DNA of 64,000 nt from Spirochaetia bacterium (lineage in GTDB: Bacteria > Spirochaetota > Spirochaetia > DSM-2461), in NCBI GenBank assembly GCA_963668315.1, contig OY764216.1, positions 4,960,001 through 5,024,000 on the forward strand, in the 5' to 3' direction. Shown here in pieces: positions 49,326 through 64,000 of this stretch (within the stretch, counting starts at the first letter, position 1; each line of letters begins with the position of its first letter). The notes beneath the pieces were generated by a model. It saw only the letters and a list, made by a program, of their open reading frames with translations. It searched no databases and was not told where the DNA came from. The translations under genes and the position numbers were made by a program.

Positions 49326-50294
49326 ATGAGCATACTGACAGTTAAAGATCTGAAAAAATACTATACGGTCACCTCCGAAACGGGGGCCGAGAAAAAGACA
49401 CTGAAAGCGGTGGACGGGGTTAGCTTTACCCTGAAAAAAGGCGAAATCCTGGGCGTGGTGGGCGAATCGGGCTGCGGCAAATCCACACTGGGCAAAACCA
49501 TTCTCCGCCTTCACGACAAAAATGAAGGAGAAGTGATCCTCCAGGATCAGGATCTTTTCAATCTCTCCCCGGGTGAACTGAAAAAAACCCGCTTGAAAGC
49601 ACAGATGGTCTTTCAGGATCCCTTTTCCTCCCTCAATCCCCGGAAAAGGGTCAAGGACCTTATCGGCCAGCCCCTGCGTATTCACGGCTGGGGCAGCAAG
49701 GCAGAAATAGATGAGCGGGTTTCCTCCCTGATGGAGGAGGTAGGTCTCAACCCCCAGTACCGCACCCGCTTCGCCCACCAGTTCTCCGGCGGCCAGAGAC
49801 AGAGAATCGGCATAGCCCGCGCACTGGCCCTTAACCCGGAATTCATCGTATGCGACGAGGCGGTTTCCGCCCTTGACGTCTCGGTTCAGGCCCAGATCAT
49901 CAATCTTCTGCTGGATCTGCGGGAGAAATATAACCTGACATACATGTTCATCGCCCATGACCTTTCAGTGGTAGAGTTCATCTCCACCCGCATCATCGTC
50001 ATGTATCTGGGACGCATCGTCGAAATGGCCGATAAGGAGGAGCTGGTCAAATCCCATGTTCACCCCTATACCAGGGCCCTTTTTCAGGCGTTCCCCGCCG
50101 CAGACCCCTCTCAGAGGGAAAAGAAAGAGAAAGTGGTGGTAGGAGATGTCCCCTCTCCCATCGATCCGCCCTCGGGCTGTCATTTCCATCCCCGGTGCCC
50201 CTTTGCAGACGAAAAATGCCGCACCCAGTACCCTCCTTTGGAGGAAGTTGCGCCGGGTCATTTCTCGGCCTGCTGGAAGAACAAAACTTTTTAA
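49326..50294 (+). CDS. dppF: Dipeptide ABC ATPase
   Basis: [32 protein letters not shown]. Confidence 0.9.
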
Positions 50295-50313
50295 TTTTTT
50301 TTTGCGATAGCTG

Positions 50314-50342
50314 TTGACAGAAAAAATCCTTTTCTGTATTAT
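50314..50342 (+). promoter_or_regulatory. sigma70 promoter of the tRNA pair
   Basis: TTGACA-17-TATTAT. Confidence 0.8.
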
Positions 50343-50369
50343 AGCCAAGCACATTGAGAGTGCCCCCGA

Positions 50370-50443
50370 GCCCCGGTAGCTCAGTAGGATAGAGCAACTG
50401 CCTCCTAAGCAGTAGGTCATGCGTTCGAATCGCGTTCGGGGTA
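50370..50443 (+). tRNA. tRNA-Arg (CCT)
   Basis: Cloverleaf; anticodon arm ACTGC-CT-CCT-AA-GCAGT; TTCGAAT T-loop. Confidence 0.95.
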
Positions 50444-50465
50444 AAGCTCAAAGTAGCAAAAAAAT

Positions 50466-50539
50466 GGAGGCGTAGCGAAGCTGGTTATCGCGCCGGCCTG
50501 TCAAGCCGGAGATCGCGGGTTCGATCCCCGTCGCTTCCG
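50466..50539 (+). tRNA. tRNA-Asp (GTC)
   Basis: Cloverleaf; anticodon arm CCGGC-CT-GTC-AA-GCCGG; acceptor stem GGAGGCG/CGCTTCC. Confidence 0.95.
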
Positions 50540-50542
50540 CAC

Positions 50543-50575
50543 AAGAGACTATCCCTGGATAGTCTCTTTTTTTTT
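50543..50575 (+). terminator. Intrinsic terminator after the tRNAs
   Basis: AAGAGACTATCC-CT-GGATAGTCTCTT followed by a T tract. Confidence 0.9.
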
Positions 50576-50730
50576 GCCCCCATAGTTTTGGGGAAATCCC
50601 CTCACTCCGCTTCTGCGGGGTCAGCCTTCGGCTCCCCTCCAATCCCTTTTCCTCCCTCATGAAAAGCCCCGAGTAAACAGTCTTAAGTCAAAACGATTAT
50701 ACACTATCGCCTAATGTTATTATAACGAAT

Positions 50731-51531
50731 TCATAAAGGACTCCTTATCCGGCTTAATCGGCTCTCTGCCATATGCAGGTAAACCATAGTCGAGCTAACC
50801 GACGAATGCCCCAGCATCTTCTTTATCGTCTTTACATCAGTCCCATTCTCCAGAAGATGGGTGGCAAAAGAGTGGCGTAAGGTATGACAAGTCGCTTTCC
50901 CTTCCAATCTCGATTTAAGGCAGGCCTTTTCAAATACTATCTGCAGCGTTCTAATGCTGTACTTCCTACCGTTTATCGACTTGAACAAATATTCTCGGGG
51001 CGATCTGTCGCCCATAAGATAAATAAGATCCTCCTTTAACGAGCGGGATATCAGCGTCACGCGGTCTTTCCTCCCCTTCCCCCTCCTCACGGTTAGAGTG
51101 AAACTTGCAAGATCCACGTCACGCACCCGTAAATCGACGACTTCGCTAACCCTGAGTCCGGACCCATATAGCATGGCAATCATCGTCCTATGCCTCAAAT
51201 TTTGCACAGAGGATAGGATAATCAGAATCTCTTCCCTCGAGAGAACGCGGGGCAGTTCTTTATTTCTTCTGGGTCTGTCAAGAACATAGGGACAATCCCT
51301 GTGAATAACCAACCTGTAAAAAGTTTTAATGCAGGCATAACATACCTTCACCGTAGCCGGCTTATCCTCATAAAGTTTCAGAAATCGGAAAATTTGCTCC
51401 CCGGGCTCATAATTATGTCTTCCCGCGAAAGACTCGAATTTATGGAAATAAAACAGATAAGCTCTAATCGTCTTAGCACTGTAATTGCGGATTTTCATCT
51501 CCGCCTCAAAGCGTTCCCCGTATTTAGTCAT
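50731..51531 (-). CDS. Tyrosine recombinase, integron-integrase-like but apparently lacking the I2 insertion
   Basis: N-terminal RNYSAKTIRAY (IntI-like SAM domain), LPRVLS, LYGSGLRVSE, GKGRKDR, HTLRHSFATHLL, LGHSS..TMVY, SPL end; divergent from the cassette array. Confidence 0.9.
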   Translation of the reverse strand: MTKYGERFEAEMKIRNYSAKTIRAYLFYFHKFESFAGRHNYEPGEQIFRFLKLYEDKPATVKVCYACIKTFYRLVIHRDCPYVLDRPRRNKELPRVLSREEILIILSSVQNLRHRTMIAMLYGSGLRVSEVVDLRVRDVDLASFTLTVRRGKGRKDRVTLISRSLKEDLIYLMGDRSPREYLFKSINGRKYSIRTLQIVFEKACLKSRLEGKATCHTLRHSFATHLLENGTDVKTIKKMLGHSSVSSTMVYLHMAESRLSRIRSPL

Positions 51532-51603
51532 ATAAACTCCTGTTTTATTAAGCGCAGTTTTTTTGCTATTTCATGCAAAATAACTGCGAACAGGAATATA
51601 ATA

Positions 51604-51641
51604 TTGAAGGATTAATGAAATTCGCATAAGATACGTTAGAT
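51604..51641 (+). promoter_or_regulatory. attI-like site with an overlapping Pc-like promoter
   Basis: G/TTAGAT at 51635-51641 is complementary to the end of cassette 1 (GCATCTAAC, 52045-52053); no left hairpin arm; TTGAAG-17-TAAGAT at 51604-51632. Confidence 0.7.
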
Positions 51642-51662
51642 GCAACTTTTTTGAAGGATTGA

Positions 51663-52052
51663 ATGAGAAAAATAGACATTATACAAGAACTTAAAAATTC
51701 CAATTTAGACCTATCGAAGGTATGGACTTTATGTGGAACAGCAATGGTTTTACATGAATTGCGGGAAACAACATCTGACATTGATTTAGGGTGTTCATCT
51801 CAATATTTCAATGAACTTCTTAAAAATAACTTTCCTGTTAAAACCTGGGAGAATGGCGACCGTTCGATACATTACACTGGAAATATTGAGATATTTGAAG
51901 AATGGAATATAAACGAGAAAAATTATTTTGATGGCATTGCAACTTCATCTGTAAATGATCTAATAGAACAAAAAGAATCTTTAAACAGAGAAAAAGATAA
52001 AAAAGATCTAGAAGTTCTTTATGCTAAACGTCTCCAAAAAAGCAGCATCTAA
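51663..52052 (+). CDS. Cassette 1: nucleotidyltransferase-fold protein
   Basis: hCGTAMVLHELRETTSDIDL (G..DxD NTase-like) and C-terminal REKDKKD; stop codon lies inside R''. Confidence 0.6.
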   Translation: MRKIDIIQELKNSNLDLSKVWTLCGTAMVLHELRETTSDIDLGCSSQYFNELLKNNFPVKTWENGDRSIHYTGNIEIFEEWNINEKNYFDGIATSSVNDLIEQKESLNREKDKKDLEVLYAKRLQKSSI

Positions 52053-52137
52053 CAGACAATATATGCTCCGCTTCGCTGCGGTCTTCGACAAATCTATCAC
52101 TGCGTGATAGACTTCATATATCGTCGGAACGTTATAC
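52047..52137 (+). repeat. attC-like site 1 (91 bp)
   Basis: ATCTAAC-A-GACAATATATG...CATATATCGTC-GGAAC-GTTATAC. Confidence 0.85.
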
Positions 52138-52176
52138 ACAATTTCTTTTTTGAAGATTTTTTTGGAGTATTTGTTG

Positions 52177-53094
52177 ATGAATAAATTATGGCTTTTTGTA
52201 TCAATCATGACCGTTTTTTTGTTTTTTTCTTGCTCTTCTACACCCTATTCAGGAATGGAAATCATTTCAGAAAGTGACGGATATAATTATTACATTGAAA
52301 ATAGTGAATCGAACTCTTTGATCATTTATATTGATGGTAGTGGATATCAATCAGTTTTAGGTCAACGAGATGATTCTGAGAAATGGACCACTACCACCTT
52401 ATCCAATCCACTATCACAGCATTTTAGGAAGAGTTATAATATTCTCATCCCTGAGAAGTTAGATTTTTCTCCTGGAGAAATATATCTTGATAATTCTGAA
52501 GTCCTGAGTAAATCAACGGTTCAGGCTCTTGGATTAAGTTATTCCCAGAAAATAGATAACTTTTTAAGTAATCATAATTTTACTGAAATTATTTTAATAG
52601 GCGCATCAGAAGGAGGTGCCCTTTTACCTTATATTTATAACAATCTGTTACATATAGGTGAAATCAATAAACTAGTAATTTGGAGTGGAGGAGGTCTTAG
52701 TCAACTGAAAGAGTTTCAAATCCTAGGTAATTCGTCAGTTTTAATGCCTGATCAATATCGTGATCTTTGCAAGCAAGTTGATGAAATGGCTGAAGCTATC
52801 AACTCAGAACCTGAAGCTATTGATAAATTTTACCTAGGGCATCCATATATTCGTTGGAGTAGTTTTTTTAAATATGAGCCTATAGATTATATTAGGCAAA
52901 TAGATATTCCCATTTTGTTTATTCACGGAGAGATGGATTGGTCAACACCTGTTGAATCAACACGTATTATTGAAGAATCAAATATTTCTGATCAATTTGA
53001 TTTTATTTATTATCCTAAGATGGAACATAGTCCTTCGTCTTTTGCTGAATTGAAAAGAGTTTTAAAAGACATTGAGGAATGGATACTTGGTTGA
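52177..53094 (+). CDS. Cassette 2: alpha/beta hydrolase lipoprotein
   Basis: Lipobox FFSC; DGSG, GASEG nucleophile, HGEMD, MEH. Confidence 0.82.
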   Translation: MNKLWLFVSIMTVFLFFSCSSTPYSGMEIISESDGYNYYIENSESNSLIIYIDGSGYQSVLGQRDDSEKWTTTTLSNPLSQHFRKSYNILIPEKLDFSPGEIYLDNSEVLSKSTVQALGLSYSQKIDNFLSNHNFTEIILIGASEGGALLPYIYNNLLHIGEINKLVIWSGGGLSQLKEFQILGNSSVLMPDQYRDLCKQVDEMAEAINSEPEAIDKFYLGHPYIRWSSFFKYEPIDYIRQIDIPILFIHGEMDWSTPVESTRIIEESNISDQFDFIYYPKMEHSPSSFAELKRVLKDIEEWILG

Positions 53095-53117
53095 ACACCG
53101 TTCAAAAAAGAAACTGT

Positions 53118-53262
53118 GTATAACAGAGAATATACGGCTCCGCTTCGCTCCGGCCCAAATTGTTTCTTTGACAAATCTCAAAAAAAGTAGTTATACTTTT
53201 TCCGAGATTTATCAACCCCACAAGGGGGCGAAACAACTTCGTATATTCTCGAAACGTTATAG
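53118..53262 (+). repeat. attC-like site 2 (145 bp)
   Basis: GTATAAC-A-GAGAATATACG...CGTATATTCTC-GAAAC-GTTATAG. Confidence 0.88.
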
Positions 53263-53291
53263 GAAATTTACAATATGCGTATAAGGAAAAC

Positions 53292-53606
53292 ATGGTGGAA
53301 TTAACCTCAGAAGAATTCGACAATACATTTACATCCAATTTCAATGAAGTTACTGAAACGGCAGAAAATTTTAATGGCAAAGATTTTGATCAATATGTTA
53401 AGTCGAATTTAATTGATGAACTTGGTGTTATGCAAATTGAATATATCTATGATACTAAAGATGGAAATTGGAGACATGTCATATTCAAAACACAACTGAA
53501 AAACATTAATTATGTGGTTGTCATAGATATAAATAAGAAAACTATTCTCGGGCACCATGTTTTAGATTTAAACGAAAAATATGGATTAAACGCTTTGGGA
53601 TTGTAA
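53292..53606 (+). CDS. Cassette 3: hypothetical protein
   Basis: RBS AAGGA; fills the cassette. Confidence 0.75.
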   Translation: MVELTSEEFDNTFTSNFNEVTETAENFNGKDFDQYVKSNLIDELGVMQIEYIYDTKDGNWRHVIFKTQLKNINYVVVIDINKKTILGHHVLDLNEKYGLNALGL

Positions 53607-53611
53607 ACTTC

Positions 53612-53757
53612 CTATAACAGCAAATGATGCGGTTACGGCTTTGCCTTCTCCCAAATTGCCTTTGACAAATACAGAAAAAAGTATGTTATACTTTTCCCTG
53701 TATTTATCAACCCCTTCGGGGTACCAGGCAACTTCGCATATTTGCGAAACGTTATGT
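53612..53757 (+). repeat. attC-like site 3 (146 bp)
   Basis: CTATAAC-A-GCAAAT[G]ATGCG...CGCATATTTGC-GAAAC-GTTATGT. Confidence 0.88.
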
Positions 53758-53817
53758 TCAATGCCCATTTTTAAAAGCTTGTTGTAGCCTCGCCCTTCCA
53801 TGGGCTCGGAGAAGATT

Positions 53818-55320
53818 ATGAAGAAACAAATATTTTCATATATAAATCTACTTAAAGAGTATATGATCCAGTGCGAAGGCAAAATAATAATTTCCCCTTA
53901 TCATTCAGATGTAAAAAAAATAAGATCAGTCGTAAAAAATGAAAGTGCTTTATTTAATAATGTTGTGTTTCGATGTTCAGATAGCGTTGAAATAAAAGAG
54001 CAAAATGAAAAAGAGACATTATTGTTTTCAATCATTTCCGAAGCACTACACAAACCCGATGATTATTATGAAAAATACAAACCAGAATTATTCCGAATAA
54101 AAAACAATCTGCAAGAAGTTTTATCAAAGGTTTTTCAAGAATATAAAAAGAATAGATCTTTCTGTAAAATAATAGCTGATTCTATTGGGTACAAGACATA
54201 CTCAATTCCAGAATCCATAGATTCATTTTTAGGCAAGGAACATTCATATATCTTCTTTTATATTTTTTTAAACCATATTTTTATTGATTTTTTGAAAGCG
54301 AATAATTGTTATGATATAGATACATTTTTAGAGATAGAATCCAATAAATGGTATGATTTTCATAGAAAAAAGTTTGAAGGGATAAAAAATCGGAAAAACT
54401 ACGAATATGAAATTTGTTATTATCTCAATTCGCCTATATGCACTTCTGAAAATGGAACAAAATTAGGAATCTTTAAATACTATGATAAGAATATCTCGTT
54501 ACAAACATCTTACGTTAATGATGATGAATTGGGGACATTAACATATGATTTTTCAGAAAAAGATTACTTAAAATATGTTAACACTAAAATTTCATATAAT
54601 GCTAAAATCCCCATAGAAGCTGAAGTCTCAACTTTTGAGGACTTATATAAAGAAGCAGAAGATATCGGTAAGAGGTTATTGACGAATCTACGATTAGCTT
54701 ATGAATTTGAAATTGGTGTATTAACTTTAAAAATCAAATCAAGGGATCAGTTTACTCCAGATATCAGATCTGGGAACAATATTGAATTTAGTAACAAATA
54801 TACAGCATATTTACCGAAAAGGTTTATTTTTTTTACAGATACACCAATAGATATCCAAGAGACTGACTGCTTAAGACTTTTTAAAAGATTGAACAAAGTT
54901 CAGGAAATAGATGATTGGTTAAAAATTGCCTGTAAAAGGTTTAATCTTTCGATAGATAACTATTTTGTTTATAACCATGACAGATTATTGGATATTGCAA
55001 TCGCATTTGAAGCAATTTTTTTAAATGACAATGAATCGACGAAAGAATTAACATATAGGTTAAGTGTCCGTGCAGCTAAGTTTTTAGGTAAAAATAAGAA
55101 TGAAAAAGAGAATATATTTAAAATTGTAAATGATTTATACAAGTATCGATCAAAGATAGCGCATGGTGTAGATATAAACTCTATGAAACCAAAAGATAGA
55201 GATAGAATTAATGAAATAAATATAGAAGCCCCGATTTTACTTAAACTTTCAATTGTTAAGTCGATTTTTATGAAAAGCAATGATTGGAGAAATTATTGGC
55301 AAACGTTAACTTTAAATTAA
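53818..55320 (+). CDS. Cassette 4: ApeA-like HEPN domain protein
   Basis: C-terminal IAFEAIF..ELTYRLSVRAA..LYKYRSKIAHG (R-x4-H). Confidence 0.75.
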   Translation: MKKQIFSYINLLKEYMIQCEGKIIISPYHSDVKKIRSVVKNESALFNNVVFRCSDSVEIKEQNEKETLLFSIISEALHKPDDYYEKYKPELFRIKNNLQEVLSKVFQEYKKNRSFCKIIADSIGYKTYSIPESIDSFLGKEHSYIFFYIFLNHIFIDFLKANNCYDIDTFLEIESNKWYDFHRKKFEGIKNRKNYEYEICYYLNSPICTSENGTKLGIFKYYDKNISLQTSYVNDDELGTLTYDFSEKDYLKYVNTKISYNAKIPIEAEVSTFEDLYKEAEDIGKRLLTNLRLAYEFEIGVLTLKIKSRDQFTPDIRSGNNIEFSNKYTAYLPKRFIFFTDTPIDIQETDCLRLFKRLNKVQEIDDWLKIACKRFNLSIDNYFVYNHDRLLDIAIAFEAIFLNDNESTKELTYRLSVRAAKFLGKNKNEKENIFKIVNDLYKYRSKIAHGVDINSMKPKDRDRINEINIEAPILLKLSIVKSIFMKSNDWRNYWQTLTLN

Positions 55321-55397
55321 ACCTGCTACATAATGCCGTCCATGGCATTATGTAGAATTTATACGCACACATTTAAAAATGGGCACTAAACATAACA

Positions 55398-56967
55398 CAT
55401 ATTAGGACCCCATCTGTCAAGGACAAATTTTCCCCTGTTCTATCTAGGTAGAACATTTTTATATGAAGATGAACCGGACCGATAAAGAATGAAGCATTCT
55501 GTCTTGTTTCTCAAACGGGCTGCAGAAAAGATCTGCTCCAAACACACATAGACACTTTAACTCCGTAATTTTACGGCATTATAGAAATACATCCGTACCC
55601 AATCCTGTCATAATCAATGAAAACGGATTTCTTGGGGAATCCAGTTATTTTCGTGATCAGGCTGGTGCAGAATTCTTCCAGACTTTCTCAATCCTGGTTA
55701 TTTAAAACAGGTCGAAGCAGATATCCAATCAGCGAACGCATAATTCTTCTTTCAAATGATAAATACGAATGATAGTCATGCTATAAAAAGCCGTATTTAC
55801 GGTCATTATCTTTTTATGATTATAGTTATACGTTAGGCTTATCTGCTCCACCTGTTATGAACAAAAACGGTCTATATCAAAGGCTTTCCTCCTTTTGAGA
55901 ACATAATATACAGCTCTGGCTAATTTATGGGCCATGATGGAATAGGCTTTCCCGTTTCCAAACTTTTGCACTAATCTCTGATGATATGATTTTATCTCCG
56001 GGCAATAGCGGATGAACATGACGGCCGCTTCGGAGAAAGCCCACTTGAGATTAGCATTGCCGATTTTGGTATTTTTGGATGCATACTGCTTTCCTCCCGA
56101 TTCCCTCTGACACTTGACTACGCGGCAATAGGAAACGAAGTTCTGTACACGAGGAAAACGGTTAATGTCTTCAATTTCATAGAGAATAGTCAGGGCAAGC
56201 ACATCACCTATCCCGGGAATAGATTTCAACAAAGAAAATGCTAGAGGATCAGAATGATTTGCTGCCTTCAAAACACGAGATTCTATCTTCCGGATCTGTT
56301 CGGTTAACGCATCAACGACGGCTATGTCGACTTCCATATTCATTTTGACCGCCGGATCATCAAACCGTTCGAGTAATTCAGTCTTCGAAGCAATCGTAAG
56401 AGAATTGATCCCCTTCTTTATGGTATCGAAATTGTATTGGGTATTGGTATTCTGGATATGAGAAAGAAGATCTGATCTCCTGCGAACAAGATATATTCGC
56501 CGTCTGAAGAGGTCTCGAATAGCTCTGGTTTTCTGTGGGTAGACATAGGCTTGAGGGATCAGGCCACCTTTTAGCAATGCCGCTATCTTCTGGGAATCGA
56601 TTTTATCGTTCTTGGTTTTTCCTCCGCTTATAGCCTTCATGTAGAGGGCGTGGCCAAGGACAAAGGGAATACTGTTTAGCTGGCAGTAATCGGCAATCCA
56701 GTACCATGTGAAAATACACTCGACACAGATGACGATATCATTAAGAAAGGGGGCGATCGCTTGTTGAAGGTGAACCGGATCAGCGATCATGTTTTTATGA
56801 TAGACGATTTCGCCATCCTGGTTCATAATGCAGATATACATCTTTTTCGTGTGGAGATCGATTCCGCAGTAAAAGTTGTGTTGTTGGGTATAAAATTTCA
56901 TAAGGGCTCCTTTGGTTAAGGTTGTTGGAAATTTTAACATAACCACTAGGGGTCCTTATGATTATCA
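55398..56967 (-). mobile_element. IS110-family (IS1111-type) element, copy 1 (1570 bp)
   Basis: Sub-terminal IRs ATTAGGACCCC/GGGGTCCTTAT; CA core on both flanks; no TSD; about 455-bp non-coding region downstream of the transposase. Confidence 0.92.
55855..56901 (-). CDS. IS110 family recombinase/transposase
   Basis: GIDLH, CVE, KNDKIDS (DEDD), SIPGIG, RESGG; ATG at 56901 after AAGGAG. Confidence 0.95.
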   Translation of the reverse strand: MKFYTQQHNFYCGIDLHTKKMYICIMNQDGEIVYHKNMIADPVHLQQAIAPFLNDIVICVECIFTWYWIADYCQLNSIPFVLGHALYMKAISGGKTKNDKIDSQKIAALLKGGLIPQAYVYPQKTRAIRDLFRRRIYLVRRRSDLLSHIQNTNTQYNFDTIKKGINSLTIASKTELLERFDDPAVKMNMEVDIAVVDALTEQIRKIESRVLKAANHSDPLAFSLLKSIPGIGDVLALTILYEIEDINRFPRVQNFVSYCRVVKCQRESGGKQYASKNTKIGNANLKWAFSEAAVMFIRYCPEIKSYHQRLVQKFGNGKAYSIMAHKLARAVYYVLKRRKAFDIDRFCS

Positions 56968-57139
56968 GCGAATATACGCTGCGGCTTCGCCTTGGCCTTC
57001 GGCAAATAAACCCTTTGAAAATATTCTAAAAAATTATGATATAATTTCCCAGAATATTTTCAAGCCCGCAAGGGGCTGGGTTTACTTCGTATATTCGCGG
57101 AACGTTATAGGAAACATATTTTTGGAGATTATTTCGCAA

Positions 57140-57661
57140 ATGAAGAATATACTTGAAATGATAAAGAAAGATGCACGATTGTCATTCTGGAGCGAAGAAA
57201 AATTGGAACTGGAAGGCTTTGAGAGGATTTCAGCGACATTGACAACAATTCATAGATTCATTCTCAGCCCTCTCATTGCATATGTCTTCATTGCAGGTAT
57301 AACCAACATGTTACTAAATGTCTCATCAGTAGAAACATACATGATTATTCTCAGTTTTGTACTTGCCATATTCGTCTTTTACTTTTATGGCTATAGGTTT
57401 CTATCTGCTAATCATGCTTTTTTCGATAGAAAAAGTCGAATTGTTCTAATTTTTCTCCCATATAAGTATAGAATTATAAGTGTAAATAAAGACAACATTT
57501 ATTCAGTCGATGGTACAACATTTAATCCTATTGATTTCGTTACAATTAGAGTTAGAGAAGGAGACAAAGTAAGAAAATATCATTTTGTCTCTTCATTTAG
57601 ATTTTTCAAAGCATACACGGAGCATCCTATTGTTAAAAATATTAGGGAATACCTTAGATAG
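57140..57661 (+). CDS. Cassette 5: hypothetical 2-TM membrane protein (copy 1)
   Basis: ATG after GGAG inside the cassette GTTATAGGA...TCCTATAAC. Confidence 0.75.
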   Translation: MKNILEMIKKDARLSFWSEEKLELEGFERISATLTTIHRFILSPLIAYVFIAGITNMLLNVSSVETYMIILSFVLAIFVFYFYGYRFLSANHAFFDRKSRIVLIFLPYKYRIISVNKDNIYSVDGTTFNPIDFVTIRVREGDKVRKYHFVSSFRFFKAYTEHPIVKNIREYLR

Positions 57662-57694
57662 AACCACGTGCCAAAAAATATGCATCCTATAACA

Positions 57695-59264
57695 CATATT
57701 AGGACCCCATCTGTCAAGGACAAATTTTCCCCTGTTCTATCTAGGTAGAACATTTTTATATGAAGATGAACCGGACCGATAAAGAATGAAGCATTCTGTC
57801 TTGTTTCTCAAACGGGCTGCAGAAAAGATCTGCTCCAAACACACATAGACACTTTAACTCCGTAATTTTACGGCATTATAGAAATACATCCGTACCCAAT
57901 CCTGTCATAATCAATGAAAACGGATTTCTTGGGGAATCCAGTTATTTTCGTGATCAGGCTGGTGCAGAATTCTTCCAGACTTTCTCAATCCTGGTTATTT
58001 AAAACAGGTCGAAGCAGATATCCAATCAGCGAACGCATAATTCTTCTTTCAAATGATAAATACGAATGATAGTCATGCTATAAAAAGCCGTATTTACGGT
58101 CATTATCTTTTTATGATTATAGTTATACGTTAGGCTTATCTGCTCCACCTGTTATGAACAAAAACGGTCTATATCAAAGGCTTTCCTCCTTTTGAGAACA
58201 TAATATACAGCTCTGGCTAATTTATGGGCCATGATGGAATAGGCTTTCCCGTTTCCAAACTTTTGCACTAATCTCTGATGATATGATTTTATCTCCGGGC
58301 AATAGCGGATGAACATGACGGCCGCTTCGGAGAAAGCCCACTTGAGATTAGCATTGCCGATTTTGGTATTTTTGGATGCATACTGCTTTCCTCCCGATTC
58401 CCTCTGACACTTGACTACGCGGCAATAGGAAACGAAGTTCTGTACACGAGGAAAACGGTTAATGTCTTCAATTTCATAGAGAATAGTCAGGGCAAGCACA
58501 TCACCTATCCCGGGAATAGATTTCAACAAAGAAAATGCTAGAGGATCAGAATGATTTGCTGCCTTCAAAACACGAGATTCTATCTTCCGGATCTGTTCGG
58601 TTAACGCATCAACGACGGCTATGTCGACTTCCATATTCATTTTGACCGCCGGATCATCAAACCGTTCGAGTAATTCAGTCTTCGAAGCAATCGTAAGAGA
58701 ATTGATCCCCTTCTTTATGGTATCGAAATTGTATTGGGTATTGGTATTCTGGATATGAGAAAGAAGATCTGATCTCCTGCGAACAAGATATATTCGCCGT
58801 CTGAAGAGGTCTCGAATAGCTCTGGTTTTCTGTGGGTAGACATAGGCTTGAGGGATCAGGCCACCTTTTAGCAATGCCGCTATCTTCTGGGAATCGATTT
58901 TATCGTTCTTGGTTTTTCCTCCGCTTATAGCCTTCATGTAGAGGGCGTGGCCAAGGACAAAGGGAATACTGTTTAGCTGGCAGTAATCGGCAATCCAGTA
59001 CCATGTGAAAATACACTCGACACAGATGACGATATCATTAAGAAAGGGGGCGATCGCTTGTTGAAGGTGAACCGGATCAGCGATCATGTTTTTATGATAG
59101 ACGATTTCGCCATCCTGGTTCATAATGCAGATATACATCTTTTTCGTGTGGAGATCGATTCCGCAGTAAAAGTTGTGTTGTTGGGTATAAAATTTCATAA
59201 GGGCTCCTTTGGTTAAGGTTGTTGGAAATTTTAACATAACCACTAGGGGTCCTTATGATTATCA
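57695..59264 (-). mobile_element. IS110-family element, copy 2
   Basis: Same as copy 1, offset 2297 bp. Confidence 0.92.
58152..59198 (-). CDS. IS110 family recombinase/transposase
   Basis: Protein identical to copy 1. Confidence 0.95.
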   Translation of the reverse strand: MKFYTQQHNFYCGIDLHTKKMYICIMNQDGEIVYHKNMIADPVHLQQAIAPFLNDIVICVECIFTWYWIADYCQLNSIPFVLGHALYMKAISGGKTKNDKIDSQKIAALLKGGLIPQAYVYPQKTRAIRDLFRRRIYLVRRRSDLLSHIQNTNTQYNFDTIKKGINSLTIASKTELLERFDDPAVKMNMEVDIAVVDALTEQIRKIESRVLKAANHSDPLAFSLLKSIPGIGDVLALTILYEIEDINRFPRVQNFVSYCRVVKCQRESGGKQYASKNTKIGNANLKWAFSEAAVMFIRYCPEIKSYHQRLVQKFGNGKAYSIMAHKLARAVYYVLKRRKAFDIDRFCS

Positions 59265-59436
59265 GCGAATATACGCTGCGGCTTCGCCTTGGCCTTCGGC
59301 AAATAAACCCTTTGAAAATATTCTAAAAAATTATGATATAATTTCCCAGAATATTTTCAAGCCCGCAAGGGGCTGGGTTTACTTCGTATATTCGCGGAAC
59401 GTTATAGGAAACATATTTTTGGAGATTATTTCGCAA

Positions 59437-59958
59437 ATGAAGAATATACTTGAAATGATAAAGAAAGATGCACGATTGTCATTCTGGAGCGAAGAAAAAT
59501 TGGAACTGGAAGGCTTTGAGAGGATTTCAGCGACATTGACAACAATTCATAGATTCATTCTCAGCCCTCTCATTGCATATGTCTTCATTGCAGGTATAAC
59601 CAACATGTTACTAAATGTCTCATCAGTAGAAACATACATGATTATTCTCAGTTTTGTACTTGCCATATTCGTCTTTTACTTTTATGGCTATAGGTTTCTA
59701 TCTGCTAATCATGCTTTTTTCGATAGAAAAAGTCGAATTGTTCTAATTTTTCTCCCATATAAGTATAGAATTATAAGTGTAAATAAAGACAACATTTATT
59801 CAGTCGATGGTACAACATTTAATCCTATTGATTTCGTTACAATTAGAGTTAGAGAAGGAGACAAAGTAAGAAAATATCATTTTGTCTCTTCATTTAGATT
59901 TTTCAAAGCATACACGGAGCATCCTATTGTTAAAAATATTAGGGAATACCTTAGATAG
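59437..59958 (+). CDS. Cassette 5 duplicate: hypothetical membrane protein (copy 2)
   Basis: Protein identical to 57140-57661. Confidence 0.75.
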   Translation: MKNILEMIKKDARLSFWSEEKLELEGFERISATLTTIHRFILSPLIAYVFIAGITNMLLNVSSVETYMIILSFVLAIFVFYFYGYRFLSANHAFFDRKSRIVLIFLPYKYRIISVNKDNIYSVDGTTFNPIDFVTIRVREGDKVRKYHFVSSFRFFKAYTEHPIVKNIREYLR

Positions 59959-59991
59959 AACCACGTGCCAAAAAATATGCATCCTATAACA

Positions 59992-61561
59992 CATATTAGG
60001 ACCCCATCTGTCAAGGACAAATTTTCCCCTGTTCTATCTAGGTAGAACATTTTTATATGAAGATGAACCGGACCGATAAAGAATGAAGCATTCTGTCTTG
60101 TTTCTCAAACGGGCTGCAGAAAAGATCTGCTCCAAACACACATAGACACTTTAACTCCGTAATTTTACGGCATTATAGAAATACATCCGTACCCAATCCT
60201 GTCATAATCAATGAAAACGGATTTCTTGGGGAATCCAGTTATTTTCGTGATCAGGCTGGTGCAGAATTCTTCCAGACTTTCTCAATCCTGGTTATTTAAA
60301 ACAGGTCGAAGCAGATATCCAATCAGCGAACGCATAATTCTTCTTTCAAATGATAAATACGAATGATAGTCATGCTATAAAAAGCCGTATTTACGGTCAT
60401 TATCTTTTTATGATTATAGTTATACGTTAGGCTTATCTGCTCCACCTGTTATGAACAAAAACGGTCTATATCAAAGGCTTTCCTCCTTTTGAGAACATAA
60501 TATACAGCTCTGGCTAATTTATGGGCCATGATGGAATAGGCTTTCCCGTTTCCAAACTTTTGCACTAATCTCTGATGATATGATTTTATCTCCGGGCAAT
60601 AGCGGATGAACATGACGGCCGCTTCGGAGAAAGCCCACTTGAGATTAGCATTGCCGATTTTGGTATTTTTGGATGCATACTGCTTTCCTCCCGATTCCCT
60701 CTGACACTTGACTACGCGGCAATAGGAAACGAAGTTCTGTACACGAGGAAAACGGTTAATGTCTTCAATTTCATAGAGAATAGTCAGGGCAAGCACATCA
60801 CCTATCCCGGGAATAGATTTCAACAAAGAAAATGCTAGAGGATCAGAATGATTTGCTGCCTTCAAAACACGAGATTCTATCTTCCGGATCTGTTCGGTTA
60901 ACGCATCAACGACGGCTATGTCGACTTCCATATTCATTTTGACCGCCGGATCATCAAACCGTTCGAGTAATTCAGTCTTCGAAGCAATCGTAAGAGAATT
61001 GATCCCCTTCTTTATGGTATCGAAATTGTATTGGGTATTGGTATTCTGGATATGAGAAAGAAGATCTGATCTCCTGCGAACAAGATATATTCGCCGTCTG
61101 AAGAGGTCTCGAATAGCTCTGGTTTTCTGTGGGTAGACATAGGCTTGAGGGATCAGGCCACCTTTTAGCAATGCCGCTATCTTCTGGGAATCGATTTTAT
61201 CGTTCTTGGTTTTTCCTCCGCTTATAGCCTTCATGTAGAGGGCGTGGCCAAGGACAAAGGGAATACTGTTTAGCTGGCAGTAATCGGCAATCCAGTACCA
61301 TGTGAAAATACACTCGACACAGATGACGATATCATTAAGAAAGGGGGCGATCGCTTGTTGAAGGTGAACCGGATCAGCGATCATGTTTTTATGATAGACG
61401 ATTTCGCCATCCTGGTTCATAATGCAGATATACATCTTTTTCGTGTGGAGATCGATTCCGCAGTAAAAGTTGTGTTGTTGGGTATAAAATTTCATAAGGG
61501 CTCCTTTGGTTAAGGTTGTTGGAAATTTTAACATAACCACTAGGGGTCCTTATGATTATCA
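59992..61561 (-). mobile_element. IS110-family element, copy 3
   Basis: Same as copy 1, offset 4594 bp. Confidence 0.92.
60449..61495 (-). CDS. IS110 family recombinase/transposase
   Basis: Protein identical to copy 1. Confidence 0.95.
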   Translation of the reverse strand: MKFYTQQHNFYCGIDLHTKKMYICIMNQDGEIVYHKNMIADPVHLQQAIAPFLNDIVICVECIFTWYWIADYCQLNSIPFVLGHALYMKAISGGKTKNDKIDSQKIAALLKGGLIPQAYVYPQKTRAIRDLFRRRIYLVRRRSDLLSHIQNTNTQYNFDTIKKGINSLTIASKTELLERFDDPAVKMNMEVDIAVVDALTEQIRKIESRVLKAANHSDPLAFSLLKSIPGIGDVLALTILYEIEDINRFPRVQNFVSYCRVVKCQRESGGKQYASKNTKIGNANLKWAFSEAAVMFIRYCPEIKSYHQRLVQKFGNGKAYSIMAHKLARAVYYVLKRRKAFDIDRFCS

Positions 61562-61655
61562 GCGTCTATATGCTCCGCTTCGCTCCGGGCTTCGCCAAAT
61601 TTAAATCAAAAAGAATTACAGCGAAAATAACAAATAGTACGCTATAATAGATTCT

Positions 61656-61755
61656 ATACAACAATAAAATGCTACGGTCATGGCTATCGTCACGGTTTCT
61701 GCTTGCGCACAAACCGCGCCAACTTCACGCCATGCCGCAGATTTTGGCGTTGTAT
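61656..61755 (+). repeat. Nested canonical-geometry attC (100 bp)
   Basis: ATACAAC-AATAA-AAT[G]CTAC-GG[T]CATGGC...GCCATGCC-GCAGATT-TTGGC-GTTGTAT. Confidence 0.7.
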
Positions 61756-61853
61756 AGAAATCGGATATGCAAGCACGTGTTTTTGATTTAAACTTCATAT
61801 AAACGCGAAACGTTAGGTGTAATGTTCTTTTTATACAGCGTAAAGGATAAGAA

Positions 61854-62303
61854 ATGAAAACAAAATTTTCACATGTAAATATTATTAGTAGTGATTGGAA
61901 AAAATTAGCAGATTTTTATATTAGAGTTTTTGATTGTAAACCAAAACTTCCGGAGAGAAATCTTTCAGGTGATTGGGTTGATAAATTAACTGATTTATCA
62001 AATGCTAGAATAAAAGGGATGCACTTAATCCTCCCGGGTTATGACACCGATGGTCCCACTTTAGAGATCTTTGAATACAATGCAAATATAAGTAATAATG
62101 GTAAAAATATAAATCTGGAAGGGTTTGGTCATATTGCTTTTGCGGTAGAGGATGTTGAGGAAAAGTTAAATCTTTTATTGGATAACGGTGGATCTTCAGT
62201 CGGTCAATTGATTGACGCTGAAATAGATGGAGTCGGCAAAATCTCAGTTGTTTATGCAAAAGATCCAGAAGGCAATATTTTAGAAATTCAAAAGTGGGAA
62301 TAA
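61854..62303 (+). CDS. Cassette: VOC/glyoxalase family protein
   Basis: HVNI, LEIFEY, GHIAFAVEDV, DPEGNILEI. Confidence 0.92.
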   Translation: MKTKFSHVNIISSDWKKLADFYIRVFDCKPKLPERNLSGDWVDKLTDLSNARIKGMHLILPGYDTDGPTLEIFEYNANISNNGKNINLEGFGHIAFAVEDVEEKLNLLLDNGGSSVGQLIDAEIDGVGKISVVYAKDPEGNILEIQKWE

Positions 62304-62315
62304 AAAGAACACTAC

Positions 62316-62459
62316 ACCTAACAGCAAATGATGCGGTTCCGCTCCGCTTCACCCAAATTGCCTTTGACAAATACCCGTTCAATTATGATATAATTGAACA
62401 GCCATTTATCAACCCCTATTGGGGTACAGGCAACTTCGCATATTTGCGGAACGTTACCC
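62316..62459 (+). repeat. attC-like site (144 bp)
   Basis: ACCTAAC-A-GCAAAT[G]ATGCG...CGCATATTTGC-GGAAC-GTTACCC. Confidence 0.88.
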
Positions 62460-62523
62460 ATTATTATTTGGCTTATAATATTTTTTTTCATCATTCGCCA
62501 TCCTTGGCTCATTAGGGGAAATT

Positions 62524-62994
62524 TTGGATTTATCTGAATATAGTGTTAAAGAATTACTGATACTAATCTCTGATATCATGAAAGAGCTGATCTCAAGAAG
62601 AATTATTAGAACATTTAATAATCCTGTTGGTGATTATACGGAGTGGCTTGTTTCATCACGGTTAAATTATACGCTTGAAAATAATTCAAAAGCTGGTTTC
62701 GATGCAACTTCCAGTACCGGACAAAGGGTTCAGATAAAGGGAAGAAGAGTCACTCCATGGAATAAATCTCACCAGTTAAGTGCAATCAGAAATCTTGATT
62801 CAAAGGATTTTGATACACTAGCAGCTGTTATTTTTGATGAAGATTACAACGTAATTGAAGCGAAAATGATTCCTCAGGAAATCATTCATGAGTATGCAAA
62901 TTACCGAGAGCATGTTAATGCACATATTTTAATCTTACAAGGTGATATTCTCAACGACAATCGAGTAAAAGATATCAAAAAGGATTTGATATAG
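62524..62994 (+). CDS. Cassette: DUF6998-like putative PD-(D/E)xK nuclease
   Basis: NNPVGDYTEWL..AGFDA..RVQIKGRR. Confidence 0.6.
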   Translation: MDLSEYSVKELLILISDIMKELISRRIIRTFNNPVGDYTEWLVSSRLNYTLENNSKAGFDATSSTGQRVQIKGRRVTPWNKSHQLSAIRNLDSKDFDTLAAVIFDEDYNVIEAKMIPQEIIHEYANYREHVNAHILILQGDILNDNRVKDIKKDLI

Positions 62995-63057
62995 ATCGTG
63001 TTTAAAAGTACATCCTTGTACTTTTAAAGAACCTATACGCTGTCGCCAAATAACAAC

Positions 63058-63201
63058 GGGTAACAGCGAATTATGCGGTTTCGCTTCGCTCCACCAAAAT
63101 TGCCTTTGACAAATACCCGTTCAATTATGATATAATTGAACAGCCATTTATCAACCCCGGTGGGGTACCAGGCAACTTCGCATATTCGCGAAACGTTATA
63201 T
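63058..63201 (+). repeat. attC-like site (144 bp)
   Basis: GGGTAAC-A-GCGAAT[T]ATGCG...CGCATATTCGC-GAAAC-GTTATAT. Confidence 0.88.
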
Positions 63202-63248
63202 TCAATAGCCAATTCATGAAAATCTTTTTTAAATTTGGAGAAAATCCT

Positions 63249-64000
63249 TTGAAAGATTATGGGGAATCAAAACAATTACAGTTTCTCAACAAAACTTACA
63301 GTTTTATAAAAGACTGTATTGGAGAATCTCCAGCAGATGTTTTTATTCTAGACAATAGAAAGACATCTGAAAAATTGTTCCTTAAAATCAGCTCTAAAGA
63401 TTTTTCCTTCACTACATATTCTGTTGAACGGGAAATGCTTGTCTTGAAATGGCTAGCAGACAAAACGGATGTACCAACTGTTGTAGACTATTTTGAAAAT
63501 GAGGATTATCAATTTCTTCTGATGAAAAGCATTATTGGATTGCCAATTCTGGACACCGCACCTTCTGGAAATACTATCGTTGATTCTTTTGTCAATGGAA
63601 TAAAGACCTTTCAATCCATCAATGTTGATGATTGCCCTTTTGATAGTTCTATGAAAAAACGATTAAAGGAACTGAAATACCTGGTTAATAAAAATTTGGC
63701 AGCATTTGATGACTTTTATGAAAGTGAGTTGCCATTTGATTCCCCTGAGGATTTAATCAGTTATTTAGAAAATAATATGCATCCAGAGGAAATTGTTTTT
63801 TCCCATGGAGATTTTCAAGAAAGTAATATTTTCATCTCTAAGAAATTAGGTTTCATAGATTGGGGGCGTGGGGGAAAGGCTGATAAATGGTGTGATATTG
63901 CTCATGCTTATCAAAACATTAAAGAGCAATTGGAAGATCAGAAATATATAAACCGATTCTTTGAAAAACTAGAATTAGAACCTGATTGGGACAAGATAAA
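63249..64000 (+). CDS. Cassette: APH(3')-family aminoglycoside phosphotransferase, 3' end outside window
   Basis: Hand translation from TTG after GGAG: KDCIGESPADVF..LFLKI..TTYSVERE..WL..DCPF..RLKELKYL..VFSHGDFQESNIF..GFIDWGRGGKADKWCDIA..PDWDKI; colinear with APH(3')-IIIa motifs. Confidence 0.88.
   Translation, partial: MKDYGESKQLQFLNKTYSFIKDCIGESPADVFILDNRKTSEKLFLKISSKDFSFTTYSVEREMLVLKWLADKTDVPTVVDYFENEDYQFLLMKSIIGLPILDTAPSGNTIVDSFVNGIKTFQSINVDDCPFDSSMKKRLKELKYLVNKNLAAFDDFYESELPFDSPEDLISYLENNMHPEEIVFSHGDFQESNIFISKKLGFIDWGRGGKADKWCDIAHAYQNIKEQLEDQKYINRFFEKLELEPDWDKI

Follow-up and report, generated by a model that had tools for sequence, protein, structure and literature searches.

How does an IS110-family recombinase find one particular end of an attC-like repeat, and does a non-coding RNA encoded beside its gene guide it there? 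This question is raised by an insertion sequence (IS) in the genome of a Spirochaetia bacterium. For the window (the whole stretch of 64,000 nucleotides that was analysed), a first-pass annotation had proposed a natural bridge RNA or seekRNA with a two-loop layout, in which short guide-like words match the attC-like target and the circle junction of the IS.

The insertion sequence, its recombinase and its attC-like sites

Sequences are read on the transposase strand, on which the target is TTCGC-TG-TTAT and the donor (the joined IS ends) is ATATG-TG-ATAATCA. The genome contains five identical IS copies, three of them in the window, where the following features were located:

55398..56967, (-) strand: insertion sequence of 1,570 bp, made up of 1,568 bp and a single 2-nt core (CA on the + strand, TG on the transposase strand)
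57695..59264, (-) strand: second IS copy, with the same RNA region
59992..61561, (-) strand: third IS copy, with the same RNA region; its site reads GACGC-TG-TTAT
55401..55411, (-) strand: right subterminal inverted repeat of 11 bp, separated from the core by 3 nt
56949..56959, (-) strand: left subterminal inverted repeat, 10/11 match, 6 nt from the core
55415..55420, (-) strand: TTGACA, -35 box of a predicted circle-junction promoter, consensus match
56961..56966, (-) strand: GATAAT, -10 box, consensus match; lies 18 nt downstream of the -35 box in the circular form only
55855..56898, (-) strand: IS110-family recombinase, 347 aa from the ATG (Pfam PF01548 and PF02371; NF033542)
55389..55397, (+) strand: left-hand portion of the attC-like site that the IS interrupts (R'' box, ...ATAACA)
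56968..57111, (+) strand: remainder of the attC-like site (GCGAAT... to GTTATAG), repeat families D3 and D5
50731..51531, (-) strand: tyrosine recombinase, integron-integrase-like (PF00589), divergent from the cassette array

The IS110-family recombinase scores 200 bits against NF033542 (cut-off 140) and combines a RuvC-like DEDD domain with a C-terminal domain bearing the SG serine, which are the features of the IS110 superfamily. D14, E60, D98, D101, and S267 lie at the usual catalytic motifs, and a catalytic role is assigned to them by analogy. Characteristic of IS1111 elements are the subterminal inverted repeats (11 bp with one mismatch, at distances of 6 and 3 nt from the core), the long non-coding region downstream of tnp (457 nt, with 69 nt upstream of the ATG), and the position of the top-strand target match 5' of the bottom-strand match. 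Siddiquee et al. (2024; PMC11187229) defined such elements by subterminal inverted repeats of 11-13 bp that begin 7 (or 6) and 3 bp inside the ends; in the relatives described below, the repeats lie mostly 7 and 3 from the ends, vs. 6 and 3 here. The GL-P----S(T)G motif of IS1111 is absent, and the recombinase reads CRVVKCQRESGG there. Compared by eye, its motifs are shared with the row of Supplementary Table 1 of Durrant et al. (2024) that holds ISGsu4, ISGsu5, ISShfr7, and ISShwo5, with which the element appears to belong on sequence grounds; ISKpn4, ISPst6, and ISPa25 occupy a different row of that table. The element behaves like a member of the IS1111-attC group, but because of the missing GL-P motif and this apparent ISGsu4-like placement it is not filed there. 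No record named ISKpn4 was among the 25 best or 60 spread plasmid rows, and a literature search on ISGsu4, ISGsu5, ISShfr7, and ISShwo5 found no relevant paper.

If the IS ends are joined, TTGACA and GATAAT are predicted to form a consensus circle-junction promoter. TTGAC at promoter distance served to locate the right ends of relatives, so its conservation there is partly an effect of how these ends were chosen. No circle-junction joint was present among the contigs of four sequencing runs, a form of data that drops rare forms. A promoter and terminator scan of the linear element was uninformative (5 promoter-like sites vs. 4.7 in shuffles), and Rfam models returned two tRNAs and nothing else over 50000-64000.

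All five IS copies lie between ATAA-CA and CA-GCG in attC-like repeats of two cassette arrays, that is, at the R'' end of attC (5/5 copies), as in the IS1111-attC group. One of these arrays follows the integron-integrase-like gene, the product of which falls below the cut-offs of the integron-integrase models TIGR02249 and NF040815; this protein is short (266 aa) and is encoded behind two tRNA genes. A second cluster of at least five attC-like sites is located at ~3.44 Mb (G000:C1), far from the integrase gene, and a differently built attC-like repeat occurs at 61640-61800, after the site of the third IS copy, with no long ORF between. Across the clade of relatives, right flanks start with G|TT at 106/113 distinct sites, from which we infer that the clade is attC-directed.

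The first-pass annotation had offered the guide RNA as an explanation of which sites are occupied. In a pattern-based census, CGC-TG-TTAT (ATAACAGCG) was found in 5/5 occupied attC-like sites and in none of the 13 empty ones, and the rule therefore stands for attC-like sites. Because two copies flank a duplicated cassette, these amount to ~4 independent insertion events, and the pattern has a chance of 1 in 2,380 if sites are drawn at random. It does not extend to the rest of the genome, where 41 uninterrupted ATAACAGCG 9-mers, one of them a perfect 11-mer, are empty. The guide thus accounts for the occupied attC-like sites and not for these 9-mers, the emptiness of which could reflect selection against gene disruption or a hairpin requirement like that reported in a preprint for ISPpu10.

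Several rearrangements were observed at IS copies. The IS and one 249-codon cassette are repeated with a period of 2,297 bp and 100% identity (window 55398-61561), and sequencing depth in run X1 (IS 415, cassette 164, flank ~99) fits a real duplication, which probably arose by recombination between IS copies. At a lone IS copy (L160, G000:C1:3442631-3442664), 28 bp of the right end are duplicated in tandem, with an internal TG as the joint, and a run X2 contig shows this too; similar short end or flank duplications occur at L218, L222, and L233, and all of these are possibly products of core-mediated mis-recombination. An IS variant of ~94% identity occurs in another sample (runs X5 and X6, compared with window 55100-57300).

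Target and donor guides of the predicted RNA

Relatives were gathered from 79 genome and 80 metagenome loci at 49-73% identity (best 80 of 253 and best 80 of 506 confirmed stretches), with ends parsed by pattern and further loci added from whole-genome searches. Close relatives are rare, with matches in 2/60 related genomes and 10/400 genomes of the class. Including that of the window, 142 non-coding ends were long enough to align; 131 were kept, and 11 with broken or misaligned loop motifs were dropped. Modules were first picked by eye and then tested by permuting RNAs among 80% clusters, the tests taking in 54-68 clusters; a blind scan of ~370 windows used one element per 80% cluster and was repeated at 65% clustering. 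Kinship inflates all covariation z values, and per-column covariation is noisy at near-invariant columns. A sister group with other targets (33-35% identity where measured) contributed 22 loci, of which 18 remained after the omission of one without the end of the gene and three ending too early; in the covariation tests of this group two near-duplicates were dropped, and the anchors were patterns tuned by eye. Right junctions read GG or AG instead of TG in 17/104 loci (L001-L159), and parsed left junctions read TG, as the left-junction search pattern required; the first core base of the target seems to be tolerated and inherited on the right junction.

The alignment, consensus fold, and covariation scan delimit these features:

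55500..55854, (-) strand: predicted three-loop bridge/seek RNA, ends approximate
55840..55854, (-) strand: 5' arm of the loop 1 closing stem, pairing with 55708-55724; 15 consensus pairs, all changing on both sides
55825..55829, (-) strand: loop 1 top-strand target guide AUAAC, pairing with G-TTAT on the right side of the insertion; top-ranked among 371 windows, z 7.6
55728..55736, (-) strand: loop 1 bottom-strand target guide UUCGC, core UG, and handshake AU; best of 369 windows, z 9.8
55584..55592, (-) strand: donor loop (loop 3) top-strand guide AUGUAUUUC; best of 368 windows at 80%, z 5.1
55541..55549, (-) strand: donor loop bottom-strand guide AUGUG, core UG, and handshake UU; best of 370 windows, z 13.5

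In the alignment, each of three modules comprises a stem, a short guide ending in C, an inner hairpin or branch, a guide ending in the core UG, and the returning stem. For 33 diverse sequences, RNAalifold encloses module 1 in a 15-pair stem and module 2 in 8 pairs, and gives module 3 an inner helix of 4 pairs, with 29/33 base pairs changing on both sides. The loop 1 closing stem has a fold z of -3.4, and module 2 of this element folds no better than shuffles (z -0.9). One proposed check was whether the guide segments lie in internal loops: the consensus fold leaves the guides unpaired, and the single-sequence fold of this element, which pairs much of both loop 1 guides, speaks against it. In six plasmid relatives (43-48% identity), loops 1 and 2 were recognized by eye, and loop 3 in five.

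The other proposed check, guide-target covariation across homologous IS, gives strong support for a guide RNA. In permutation tests, the left guide of loop 1 has 206 matches to the left flank (143.4 expected, 54 clusters) and the right guide 273 matches to the right flank (243.9 expected, 59 clusters); as in bridge RNAs, the target-loop guides covary with opposite strands of the target. For loop 3, the left guide has 306 matches to the IS right end (273.4 expected, 62 clusters) and the right guide 185 to the IS left end (164.3 expected, 57 clusters), and the donor-loop guides match the joined IS ends, the right one imperfectly. At 65% clustering, three of the guides remain the best window, and the right donor guide ranks second (z 3.1). 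The latter, AUGUAUUUC, has 6/9 matches to the left end of this element and a near-constant mismatch two bases from the core; its placement at 55592-55584 is probable and is the least certain of the four, and this guide could pair with a downstream GAAAC instead.

Handshake bases add to this picture. In 59/62 clusters, the loop 1 handshake is identical to the two bases with which the IS left end begins, and in 64/68 the loop 3 handshake is identical to the two bases that open the right flank. Within the attC clade, this agreement is conservation rather than covariation, because the handshake bases hardly vary there. In the sister group, the loop 1 handshake follows the IS left end (10/12 vs. 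6.0 expected, p 0.009) and the loop 3 handshake follows the right flank (10/12 vs. 5.0 expected, p 0.004). The handshakes of a bridge RNA are thus present in loops 1 and 3, and are mostly absent from loop 2.

These results bear on the map of the first-pass annotation, in which UUCGCUG (55736-55730) and AUAAC (55701-55697) were target guides, and UGAUUAU (55616-55610) and UAUGUG (55550-55545) were donor guides. All five of its reported matches occur at the coordinates it gave. Its own caution that such short words can match by chance was examined in 5,000 dinucleotide shuffles of 55431-55854, in which the four words occur together at a frequency of 0.0004 (singly: UUCGCUG 0.022, AUAAC 0.41, UGAUUAU 0.12, and UAUGUG 0.13). 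This rarity, the perfect match of the four words to this element, and the presence of UGAUUAU in the closest relative (L002) are in favour of the map. It is contradicted for the family by the failure of three of the four segments in covariation; moreover, L002 lacks the AUAAC at 55701-55697, and L002 and this element are not independent. Only UUCGCUG is in the right register. The AUAAC at 55701-55697 falls in a linker where a base is present in only 30/66 clusters (z 1.9, p 0.04) and the commonest 4-mer is TGAG (5/30 clusters); AUAAC occurs three times, and the copies at 55829-55825 and 55648-55644 are found in 66/66 clusters (z 6.9 and 4.0). UGAUUAU yields 220 matches against the IS end where 221.9 are expected (57 clusters); it constitutes the loop 2 core and handshake, and matches the IS end because the latter, TGATAATCA, is nearly palindromic. 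UAUGUG overlaps the true left donor guide, 2 nt off register (z 1.1 vs. 8.6). The segment TTATGATTAT (55814-55823), described as a repeat of the IS end, does not covary (164 matches vs. 157.6, p 0.16). Three loops were found in place of two, and within the loops the top-strand guide comes first, as in IS1111 seekRNAs, reversing the order in that map. We therefore regard the two-loop map as very improbable; what endures of it is the guide RNA directed against the attC-like site, upheld by guide-target and guide-donor covariation and by covarying stems, with three of the four guide segments misplaced.

It is almost certain that there is a guide RNA and that its loops 1 and 3 are as mapped here. 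The contrary possibility, that there is no guide RNA and the recombinase recognizes the attC hairpin by protein contacts alone, draws on the 41 empty ATAACAGCG 9-mers, as an indication that something beyond the guide, or selection, shapes occupancy. Set against it are four independent guide-DNA covariation signals and the perfect 7-8 nt guide matches of the sister group to unrelated targets, and we give it practically no credence.

Loop 2 as a probable second target loop

The module between loops 1 and 3, in which the motifs of loop 1 recur, carries the following features:

55595..55672, (-) strand: loop 2 with its closing stem; 8 consensus pairs, 5 changing on both sides; motifs intact in 131/142 aligned ends
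55644..55648, (-) strand: loop 2 top-strand guide AUAAC, placed by covariation
55613..55621, (-) strand: loop 2 bottom-strand guide UUCAU, core UG, and handshake position AU, placed by covariation

Among the attC-targeting relatives, the left guide of loop 2 has 171 matches to the target (151.5 expected, p 0.005) and the right guide 219 (206.2 expected, p 0.006). In the blind scan at 80%, loop 2 comes 2nd among 369 windows against the left flank (z 4.3), and against the right flank it comes 4th among 371 (z 3.7); at 65%, its left guide ranks 8th of 362 (z 2.4) and its right guide 2nd of 369. Over 117 distinct sites, loop 2 scores z 2.6-4.9 against the left flank (three clustering levels, with and without GC strata). 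The loop 2 guides thus appear to follow the target weakly in this clade (z 2.4-4.9). Loop 2 was rejected as a donor loop, its left guide giving z -0.1 against the IS right end; for its right guide there is also a signal on the IS left end (z 2.3).

The signal of loop 2 in this clade falls well short of that of loop 1: perfect 4-mers to loop 2 occur at 5/117 sites, and to loop 1 at 29/117. At sites where loop 1 fits at ≤2/4 positions, loop 2 shows an excess of only p 0.03-0.05, and it is the better-fitting loop at 17/117 sites. Individual cases are informative, though not many: the L021 site matches loop 2 at 4/4 and loop 1 at 1/4 positions; in genome G061, 3/9 copies of a related element lie at CTTTT, which loop 2 matches exactly and loop 1 with one mismatch; L099 is the only one of 104 loci in which the core reads CG, as it does at the two junctions and in each of the three loops; and in the L012 cluster, where the right flank begins with TA, both right guides are changed at that position.

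Genome G061 was examined further. Eight of the nine copies of its element lie in one attC array (G061:C1:1055000-1093000, L212-L214) and one elsewhere; CTTAT sites are occupied in 0/3 cases and CTTTT sites in 3/4. The same genome contains a second, 73%-identical element (L002), the site of which fits neither loop well.

In the sister group, loop 2 is present in 18/18 loci with enough sequence. Its left guide has 31 matches to the left flank (17.7 expected, n=11, p 0.0004) and its right guide 44 to the right flank (35.5 expected, n=13, p 0.006; the better of two registers was taken for data and permutations alike), and the left guides of loops 2 and 1 share 58 matches (27.9 expected, n=16). Loop 2 very probably reads target DNA.

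An ordinary two-loop RNA composed of loops 1 and 3, with loop 2 as a structural spacer or decayed duplicate, would require that the resemblance of loop 2 to the target stems from ancestry, base composition, or conversion from loop 1. This would accord with the weak, clustering-dependent signal of the attC clade, with the U-rich left guide of loop 2, and with the present genome, where no site needs loop 2: no insertion fits it (TTCAT-TG-TTAT), and its 10 perfect 11-mers are empty and lie outside arrays. Opposed to this, loop 2 and its compensatory stems persist over protein identities from 33% to 100%, both of its guides change along with the target among the sister elements, and the core change of L099 is carried into it. 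A loop 1 profile run over the remainder of the RNA of 18 sister elements gave a best E of 0.38; a scaffold drifted this far argues against recent conversion, and it leaves shared short scaffold motifs as the only basis for an origin of loop 2 by duplication. Overall, a spacer or decayed duplicate is improbable.

Loop 2 might instead be an excision (circle-forming) loop of a three-loop RNA, reading the target halves that flank the inserted element; without the insertion-favouring donor handshake, it would let the reaction run backwards. Consistent with such a role, the full donor handshake is found in loop 2 in 15/62 clusters and 0/11 sister elements, vs. 59/62 and 9/11 for loop 1, and the loop 2 guides track loop 1 rather than diverge; in IS621, handshake pairing ahead of exchange suppresses excision (PMC13626964). 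However, a target-matching handshake, which is the excision-favouring form, is also absent from loop 2 (0/13 full matches), and in this element and in L002 the loop 2 handshake does match the donor. The mismatched left guide (UUCAU vs. TTCGC) would bind the flanks of this element poorly, and some sites fit loop 2 better than loop 1. An excision loop is therefore considered unlikely.

We favour over both the excision loop and the spacer a right-end bridge RNA with three loops, in which loop 2 is an auxiliary target loop for near-variant sites, and hold this reading to be reasonably probable. With a guide similar to that of loop 1 and mostly no donor handshake, loop 2 would confer less efficient insertion and a wider range over variable attC sites.

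Proposed mechanism and relation to known systems

The element is proposed to circularize, whereupon TTGACA and GATAAT would join into a promoter expressing the RNA, as extrapolated from IS621 (PMC11208158; PMC13626964). Each loop would present a top-strand guide, a hairpin or branch, a bottom-strand guide, both core bases, and two handshake bases. One recombinase dimer on the target loop would then meet one on the donor loop, with strands exchanged around TG, again on the model of IS621. Loop 1 (AUAAC ... UUCGC-UG-AU) would be the main targeting loop, accounting for all sites in this genome, and loop 3 is predicted to read the joined ends of the element itself. By analogy, we infer an IS621-type guide in mirror orientation to the transposase; as each loop then corresponds to an IS621 loop on the other strand, exchange would begin with the transposase bottom strand.

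The RNA resembles the seekRNAs of ISKpn4, ISPst6, and ISPa25 in its downstream non-coding location, in the subterminal inverted repeats, in insertion at one attC end, and in having the top-strand guide 5' of the bottom-strand guide (Siddiquee et al., 2024; PMC11187229). RNA guidance, attC-targeting IS1111 elements, and this guide order were already published there. Those seekRNAs are 82-86 nt long with one target pair, whereas the RNA predicted here has ~350 nt and two; long seekRNA forms are listed at 148-151 nt (PMC13604230, Table 1). With the bridge RNA of IS621 it shares paired opposite-strand guides in each loop and the 2-nt core (PMC11208160; PMC11208158; PMC13626964), as well as two handshake bases that match the partner DNA and a junction promoter, which is predicted here (PMC11208158). 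The IS621 RNA has two loops and lies at the left end (Durrant et al., 2024; PMC11208160), whereas here three loops lie at the right end, mirrored with respect to the transposase, and the handshake, unlike that of IS621, comes after the bottom-strand guide. An IS621-type bridge RNA has exactly two binding loops; with three modules, the RNA described here is therefore a variant of the bridge RNA. Its donor loop lies in a branched structure, as in many IS1111 elements (Durrant et al., 2024; PMC11208160).

An IS110 locus with several predicted donor-binding loops likewise exceeds two guide loops (bioRxiv 10.64898/2026.08.14.744561); that is one locus, with extra donor loops tied to partial circles, whereas the extra loop here is target-directed and clade-wide. 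For ISPpu10, a short guide match and a hairpin-forming target may jointly set specificity (bioRxiv 10.64898/2026.03.19.712850); its target is a REP sequence, vs. an attC-like site here. A second target loop was not found in the literature covered, chiefly main texts and preprints; supplementary tables, figures, or subscription journals could hold a three-loop model. None is described in the passages covered of PMC11208160, PMC11208158, PMC13626964, and PMC13604230, or of the preprints 2025.05.14.653916, 2025.10.25.684509, 2026.03.19.712850, and 2026.08.14.744561.

Bridge RNAs have been described as two-loop bispecific guides, and a conserved third loop whose guides change along with the target departs from that description. 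It would mean that a multi-target scaffold can serve one recombinase; guides, cores, and handshakes of this scaffold are all mapped to the base as predictions, and it would be a natural template for multiplexed or direction-controlled bridge editing. A bolder and rather doubtful extension is that loops 1 and 2 are separate insertion and excision guides, forming a directionality switch, and that the ISGsu4-like clade reached attC independently of the IS1111-attC group; if true, this split would be a built-in switch of direction across a widespread clade. For the element itself, the third loop would offer a way to keep pace with the variable attC sites of integron arrays.
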